Source: Escherichia coli
GTDB lineage: Bacteria; Pseudomonadota; Gammaproteobacteria; Enterobacterales; Enterobacteriaceae
Length of the DNA: 64,000 nucleotides
Direction: 5' to 3' (one strand)
Assembly (NCBI RefSeq): GCF_003334815.1
Contig: NZ_QOWO01000004.1
Below the pieces are notes generated by a model. It was not told the DNA's origin, searched no databases, and saw nothing but the letters and a program-made list of their open reading frames with translations. The position numbers were made by a program, and so were the translations under genes. This document shows, piece by piece, positions 63,843 to 64,000 of this stretch. How positions within the stretch are numbered: position 1 is the first letter of the stretch; each line of letters starts with the position of its first letter.

Positions 63843-64000
63843 CTGAGAGATCCCCTCATAATTTCCCCAAAGCGTAACCATGTGTGAATAAATTTTGAGC
63901 TAGTAGGGTTGCAGCCACGAGTAAGTCTTCCCTTGTTATTGTGTAGCCAGAATGCCGCAAAACTTCCATGCCTAAGCGAACTGTTGAGAGTACGTTTCGA
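63843..64000 (-). mobile_element. IS10 (inside end), partial; element continues beyond the window
   Basis: Terminus CTGAGAGATCCCCTCATAATTTCCCC with the dam GATC site, followed by sequence whose reverse complement encodes the IS10 transposase C-terminus. Confidence 0.85.
63856..64000 (-). CDS. IS10 transposase, C-terminal 48 codons (5' portion outside window)
   Basis: Minus-strand translation RNVLSTVRLGMEVLRHSGYTITREDLLVAATLLAQNLFTHGYALGKL ending at TGA (63856-63858). Confidence 0.8.
   Translation of the reverse strand, partial: RNVLSTVRLGMEVLRHSGYTITREDLLVAATLLAQNLFTHGYALGKL

Follow-up and report, generated by a model that had tools for sequence, protein, structure and literature searches.

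Probable insertion of a single IS10-Right element into rcsD of an Escherichia coli isolate

We identified a junction between rcsD, the gene for the intermediate relay protein of the Rcs envelope-stress pathway, and the insertion sequence IS10 at the 3' end of a 64,000-nucleotide stretch of Escherichia coli DNA (the window). Our reading, to which we give a probability of about 85%, is that a single IS10-Right element (1329 bp; named 'ISVsa5' by PGAP) transposed into codons 291-293 of rcsD, duplicating the target CGCCTGGTC and splitting the gene, with the loss of full-length RcsD. One junction lies in the window and the other in a second contig of a matching draft assembly. Together they give the target duplication, the identity and orientation of the element, the division of the RcsD domains, and an intact rcsB and rcsC. 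Coordinates of the features in the window are collected in Table 1.

The boundary between rcsD and IS10, read directly from the sequence, lies between positions 63842 and 63843, with ...GATATGCGCCTGGTC on the rcsD side and CTGAGAGATCCCCTCATAATTTCC... on the IS10 side. The break falls exactly after rcsD codon 293 (GTC) and is unambiguous to the base. Wild-type MG1655 and ML35 read ATG CGC CTG GTC TGG CAG G at this site, continuing TGGCAGG beyond the break, whereas the window reads ATG CGC CTG GTC and then CTG AGA GAT CCC. The terminal sequence of the IS10 inside end, CTGAGAGATCCCC..., is present at the junction, and the last stretch of the window (63843-64000) is identical at 158/158 nucleotides to the inside end of IS10-Right from Tn10 of plasmid R100. 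In R100 this end adjoins tetD, and the transposase coding sequence finishes 13 nt inside it. As the IS10-Left arm of the same Tn10 carries 6 differences within the first 81 nt of its inside end, the copy in rcsD is of the IS10-Right type. A 24-nt IS10 terminus occurs once in the window and in none of 100 shuffled sequences, and the window contains no tet sequence. The initial annotation had described an rcsD frame that is intact for 293 codons and then enters an IS10 inside end with its GATC, and both the breakpoint and the identity to R100 bear this out. The Dam site at the inner terminus of IS10 has a regulatory role, reportedly described by Roberts et al. in 1985.

Upstream of the junction, positions 60000-63842 are 100% identical to MG1655 and to other K-12 genomes, in which the region is annotated as ftp/apbE, ompC and rcsD. 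An intact gene for the small RNA MicF lies upstream of the insertion, in the interval separating ompC from rcsD, at 62559-62652 on the plus strand (Rfam RF00033, 114 bits). The open reading frame that begins at the rcsD start codon crosses into the IS and ends at 63887. It encodes 307 amino acids (62964-63887), consisting of 293 RcsD residues and 14 residues encoded by the IS.

Table 1. Features of the rcsD/IS10 junction in the window
Feature	Position	Strand	Remarks
5' fragment of rcsD, codons 1-293	62964..63842	+	100% nucleotide identity to MG1655 rcsD b2216; ATG at 62964
Left repeat of the 9-bp target duplication (CGCCTGGTC; codons 291-293 of rcsD)	63834..63842	+	same 9 bp follow the IS10 outside end
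IS10-Right inside end, first 158 nt of the 1329-nt element	63843..64000	+	identical to Tn10/R100 IS10R
Dam site GATC in the IS10 inside terminus	63849..63852	.	read from the sequence
14-codon IS-encoded tail LRDPLIISPKRNHV and TGA stop of the RcsD(1-293) fusion ORF	63843..63887	+	stop at 63885-63887
Final 47 codons and stop of the transposase gene of IS10 (its 3' end), antisense to rcsD	63856..64000	-	translation ...RNVLSTVRLGMEVLRHSGYTITREDLLVAATLLAQNLFTHGYALGKL and stop; R100 CDS WP_001339197.1

The 307-residue fusion product was used as an exact-sequence query. It had a single exact match, at the end of contig CBDBYT010000019.1 (83.8 kb) of the draft assembly GCA_965212685.1. The contig ends within a repeat, which accounts for the truncated look of the IS. 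This contig stops 202 nt into IS10, 44 nt past the end of the window, and those nucleotides are identical to R100 IS10R throughout (202/202). A complete IS10 transposase is a DDE protein of 402 aa; 62 of its codons are visible in this contig, compared with the last 47 and the stop in the window.

For the right junction we used as queries the predicted open reading frames of a hypothetical sequence made up of the IS10 outside end, the 9-bp duplication and the remainder of rcsD. In this modelled sequence a TAG codon closes the downstream frame four codons (13-15 nt) before the IS ends. The first in-frame start codons are TTG at Leu302 and TTG at Leu306, and the first ATG is Met400. The version beginning at Leu306 (585 aa) matched the end of contig CBDBYT010000026.1 (69.3 kb), which also belongs to GCA_965212685.1. 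The sole match to the Leu302 version was irrelevant here, being an unrelated contig in Logan with a Tn5/Nextera mosaic-end adaptor at its start. The Met400 version returned 24 contigs with other disruptions of rcsD, and GCA_965212685.1 was not among them.

Contig CBDBYT010000026.1 contains the reciprocal junction. Its nucleotides 1-121 are identical (121/121) to the last 121 nt of IS10R, ending in ...GGGGATTCATCAG (also written ...TTAGGGGATTCATCAG), and they carry the IS10R variants at six positions that differ in IS10L. Nucleotides 122-130 are CGCCTGGTC, followed by TGGCAGGTTCC..., the uninterrupted rest of rcsD (TGGCAGG...). As CGCCTGGTC is found at both junctions and once in the wild type, it constitutes a 9-bp direct target duplication. 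It agrees with the relaxed IS10 target consensus NPuCNNNGPyN at 4/4 specified positions and with the strict classical consensus NGCTNAGCN at 3/6 (both consensus sequences from PMC4574204). The first codons of the transposase gene (MCELD) lie on the minus strand at nucleotides 1-19 of the contig. Downstream of the rcsD 3' fragment (rcsD') the contig encodes full-length RcsB (216 aa) and RcsC (949 aa), followed by atoS and atoC, and its rcsD' and rcsB are identical to those of wild-type ML35 and MG1655. In total, 323 nt of the IS10 copy are visible (202 from the inside end and 121 from the outside end), all of them identical to R100 IS10R. The initial annotation had predicted that a second IS10 end, the 9-bp CGCCTGGTC and the rest of rcsD would be found beyond the window, and all three are present in this contig.

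The combination of a single inside end, a single outside end and a direct repeat of 9 bp indicates a simple insertion of a solitary IS10. An insertion of Tn10 has two outside ends, and an inside-out Tn10 has two inside ends. Deletions and inversions promoted by IS10 leave no target duplication and flanks that are not contiguous. Because IS10 inside ends are known to take part in Tn10-promoted deletions and inversions, and because the window ends within the IS, the window by itself would fit Tn10, whether complete or inside-out, or a neighboring deletion or inversion, with DNA other than the rest of rcsD beyond the element. However, the IS10R outside end is followed by the same 9 bp and then by directly contiguous rcsD, with nothing deleted or inverted, and one end of each kind is seen in place of two alike. 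A composite Tn10 would have outside ends at both junctions and tetR and tetA(B) between its arms, whereas here the left junction has an inside end and only the right one an outside end. We therefore regard a Tn10 or an IS10-promoted rearrangement as very improbable and essentially refuted. The earlier claim of a solo IS10, as opposed to a Tn10, agrees with the ends found at the two junctions, both of which are of the IS10-Right type. We infer that the central 1006 bp of the element (positions 203-1208, joined to neither contig) are complete. As a formal possibility, the IS10 copy could be altered internally, or the two ends, one inside and one outside, could delimit a larger element.

The junction sits at the end of a short-read draft contig that is broken within a repeated IS, as it might if the contig end were a chimera made at a repeat during assembly. 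However, the breakpoint coincides exactly with the IS10 terminus, the reciprocal junction with its perfect 9-bp duplication is found in a second contig, and Logan assembled an identical right junction independently from two other runs, SRR10357323 and ERR271227. Such an artefact is, in our judgement, as good as excluded.

Compared with IS10-Right of Tn10 (R100, NC_002134; 'IS4-like element ISVsa5'), the element in rcsD shares all 323/323 visible nucleotides, the 9-bp duplication, the Dam site of the inner terminus, RNA-OUT, and the start and end of the transposase gene. It differs in being a solitary chromosomal copy and not an arm of Tn10, and it is known here from both ends, without the central part. 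An independent IS10 event was seen about 1-2 kb from the rcsD site in E. coli ST18 (NZ_CP060709.1, a laboratory conjugation donor), where IS10 ('ISVsa5') lies within the neighboring gene ompC.

The lesion had been described as one often seen in laboratory strains with a history of Tn10, and several features of the window speak against such an origin here. The gene yejO, encoding an adhesin-like autotransporter, is an intact ORF of 863 aa (37178-39769, minus strand), whereas in MG1655 yejO is a pseudogene interrupted by IS5K. The eco-mqo intergenic region (53983-54583) is made of tandem REP/BIME-like units of about 113 bp. By DNA alignment it has one 113-bp unit fewer than MG1655, and there is one SNP relative to MG1655 near its 3' end. 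Given the intact yejO without IS5K, the missing REP unit and the SNP, the background is not K-12. The best full-length matches at 100% identity are phylogroup-A-like wild or collection strains, among them ML35, NCTC9100, NCTC9041 and porcine ETEC. In addition, of 5426 complete E. coli genomes, 1028 (19%) contain IS10, in a median of 2 copies and a maximum of 45, and a comparable frequency of 16% has been published (PMC4574204). With IS10 this common, a laboratory strain with a Tn10 history is neither needed nor indicated.

The rcsD::IS10 junction itself was found in 0 of the 5426 complete RefSeq E. coli genomes. As noted above, the right junction recurs in two sequencing runs. In ERR271227 there is an additional C-to-T change in rcsB (alignment column 2025) that converts Pro60 to Leu, four residues from the phospho-acceptor Asp56, and this run is therefore a different dataset from GCA_965212685.1. 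The Pro60Leu change may be a further lesion of the Rcs pathway or an error of sequencing or assembly. At least two independent datasets, and probably three, thus carry the rcsD::IS10 allele, which is most simply explained by clonal inheritance. A literature search for the accessions GCA_965212685, SRR10357323 and ERR271227 gave no match.

The transposase is encoded on the strand opposite to rcsD. The inside end of the element points toward the 5' part of the split gene and the outside end toward the 3' part and rcsB. A full-length match to the RNA-OUT model is found at 7-76 of contig CBDBYT010000026.1 (Rfam RF00240, 98.8 bits; gathering score 41). It lies on the plus strand, the same sense as rcsD' and rcsB, and transcription from pOUT would therefore leave the IS toward the 3' fragment of rcsD and rcsB. 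A part of the pOUT transcripts runs on into adjacent genes, at about 10% of the level of lacUV5 (PMC9330008). Scans for consensus promoters and terminators detected neither pIN nor pOUT in the R100 reference, so the placement of pOUT relies on the literature and on the Rfam match to RNA-OUT. The same promoter scan, which missed both R100 promoters, found no sigma-70 consensus promoter above chance in the downstream rcsD fragment, and the terminator scan likewise gave no signal above chance there.

The insertion separates the recognized domains of RcsD. The Pfam domains HATPase_c, RcsD_ABL and Hpt are all called on the downstream fragment and none on the 307-residue product. The NCBIfam RcsD equivalog NF007907 aligns with the 307-residue product over positions 2-292 of 893 with 532 bits, less than the cut-off of 634 because the product is truncated. 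Positions 285-891 of the model fall on the separate, start-less fragment. The profile is split at about 285-292, and no single product covers the full RcsD model, HPt His842 included. An NCBIfam search with the 47-aa transposase tail gave zero matches, the query being too short. In the topology map of Wall et al. (2020), residues 45-304 of RcsD are periplasmic and residues from 326 to the C-terminus are cytoplasmic (PMC7418988). On this map the periplasmic region extends 11 residues past the break.

As predicted from the sequence, the first membrane segment and most of the periplasmic part are retained in the 307-residue product, which ends before the second membrane segment and has nothing cytoplasmic. 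The downstream part is predicted to be a promoter-less and start-less segment of residues 291-890 with the PAS-like, HATPase-like/ABL and HPt domains. Because all of the recognized cytoplasmic domains (HATPase-like, ABL and HPt) lie downstream of the break, full-length RcsD cannot be made. The domain calls and the split of the NF007907 profile thus uphold the initial proposal of a truncated product without the kinase-like and HPt domains.

Without full-length RcsD, the transfer of phosphate from RcsC through RcsD (His842) to RcsB (Asp56) would stop, and the reverse (phosphatase) flow would be lost too. We infer all of the phenotypic consequences from rcsD null alleles of K-12. In these, induction is lost, basal RcsB output is 3-4-fold higher, RcsB levels are normal, and igaA is dispensable (PMC7418988). 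The higher basal output arises because acetyl phosphate phosphorylates RcsB and the RcsC/RcsD phosphatase route is lost. By analogy, the Rcs regulon (colanic acid, rprA) is predicted not to be inducible by envelope stress, basal RcsB-dependent expression would rise moderately through acetyl phosphate, and IgaA would be dispensable. RcsB would still be made from its own promoter within the 3' part of rcsD, and possibly also by read-through from pOUT; a PrcsB promoter inside the rcsD coding region has been described in Salmonella (PMC5461412).

Loss of the stress-inducible RcsC-RcsD-RcsB relay is therefore likely by analogy with K-12. We consider it plausible that a disabled stress-inducible phosphorelay, and not a silenced RcsB, is the best reading of the allele. 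The initial suggestion that the Rcs phosphorelay is disabled can be kept in so far as the inducible relay is likely lost, but not in the sense of silencing, given the raised basal output of the K-12 nulls. The K-12 null alleles rcsD541, rcsD543, rcsD841* and H842A (Wall et al. 2020, PMC7418988) resemble the insertion in that full-length RcsD and HPt function are lost and rcsB is kept, and they are the basis of the predicted phenotype. However, those alleles delete the 5' 540 bp or affect the HPt domain, whereas here the break is at codon 293. The insertion also leaves a 307-residue periplasmic fragment, places an outward-facing IS promoter upstream of the 3' fragment, and is found in another strain background.

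A clean null is not guaranteed, because the N-terminal deletion alleles rcsD541 and rcsD543 behaved as if the chromosome still made some HPt-containing product, and plasmid-borne rcsD with stop codons unexpectedly gave strong signaling (Wall et al. 2020, PMC7418988). A possible alternative, which we consider doubtful, is that transcription from pOUT, together with the internal starts at Leu302, Leu306 or Met400, yields an N-terminally truncated RcsD with ABL and HPt that is free of control by IgaA and signals constitutively or in an altered manner. RNA-OUT and pOUT face rcsD', and their transcripts can reach adjacent genes as described above. However, the in-frame TAG four codons inside the IS end closes the frame, the candidate in-frame starts have no recognizable Shine-Dalgarno sequence, and the promoter scan of the downstream fragment was negative. 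The K-12 work gives some precedent for such a product, since chromosomal rcsD326-C confers mucoidy and constitutive signaling, the plasmid stop-codon mutants signaled strongly, and the effects of rcsD541 needed a chromosomal HPt domain (PMC7418988). Y. pestis also makes a functional RcsD-Hpt from a frameshifted rcsD (PMC10191623), and the presence of the allele in at least two or three datasets is consistent with this alternative, but a constitutively active Rcs pathway usually carries a cost and is counter-selected (PMC4760081). In its fullest form, which seems to us similarly unlikely, rcsD::IS10 would be a naturally maintained regulatory allele in which a pOUT-driven, IgaA-blind ABL and HPt fragment, uncoupled from the membrane sensor part, resets Rcs output in the manner of rcsD326-C or the Y. 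pestis RcsD-Hpt. If this were true, selection within a phylogroup-A lineage in circulation would account for the finding of the allele in several independent datasets.

Under the preferred reading of an insertional loss of full-length RcsD, two further sets of rcsD lesions can be compared. IS insertions in rcsD, rcsB or rcsC are recurrent among spontaneous non-mucoid revertants in experimental evolution (PMC4760081). They represent the same class of lesion (an IS within rcsD) with the same presumed shut-off of capsule induction, but they are laboratory derivatives of mucoid, phage-resistant ancestors, whereas the rcsD::IS10 allele is found in natural-looking isolates. The frameshift in rcsD of Yersinia pestis (PMC10191623) is likewise a naturally fixed disruption, and a C-terminal product with the HPt domain can still play a part there. 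However, that frameshift is near the 3' part of rcsD in another genus, and expression of RcsD-Hpt has been demonstrated there.

Several other interruptions of rcsD were encountered in the searches. In nucleotides 1-60 of a contig from SRR13207736, CGCCTGGTCTGG reads CGCCTGTCTGG, a 1-bp deletion and frameshift at the same spot in rcsD that gives the same downstream ORF call and is either a real frameshift or a read error. In many metagenome and draft contigs rcsD is split into an N-terminal ORF (300-381 aa) and a 491-aa ORF starting at Met400, and an N-terminal ORF of 359 aa is common to several independent samples. These split genes suggest either recurrent pseudogenization of rcsD in natural E. 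coli or recurrent assembly frameshifts. A Logan contig from SRR20302337 that starts inside rcsD was set aside, as its nucleotides 1-23 are the Tn5/Nextera mosaic end AGATGTGTATAAGAGACAG, which represents adaptor carry-over or a Tn5 library junction and no natural lesion.

The insertion described here involves a known element and a known gene and is an ordinary insertional inactivation, with no new element, mechanism or pathway. It serves as a worked example in which an IS junction at the end of a draft contig is resolved through the reciprocal junction in another contig. Its main relevance is to annotation and to the interpretation of strains. An rcsD deficiency should be assumed for the isolate described here and for at least one or two further sequenced isolates with the same allele, and it can alter capsule induction, biofilms, motility, sensitivity to phages and tolerance to antibiotics that act on the envelope.
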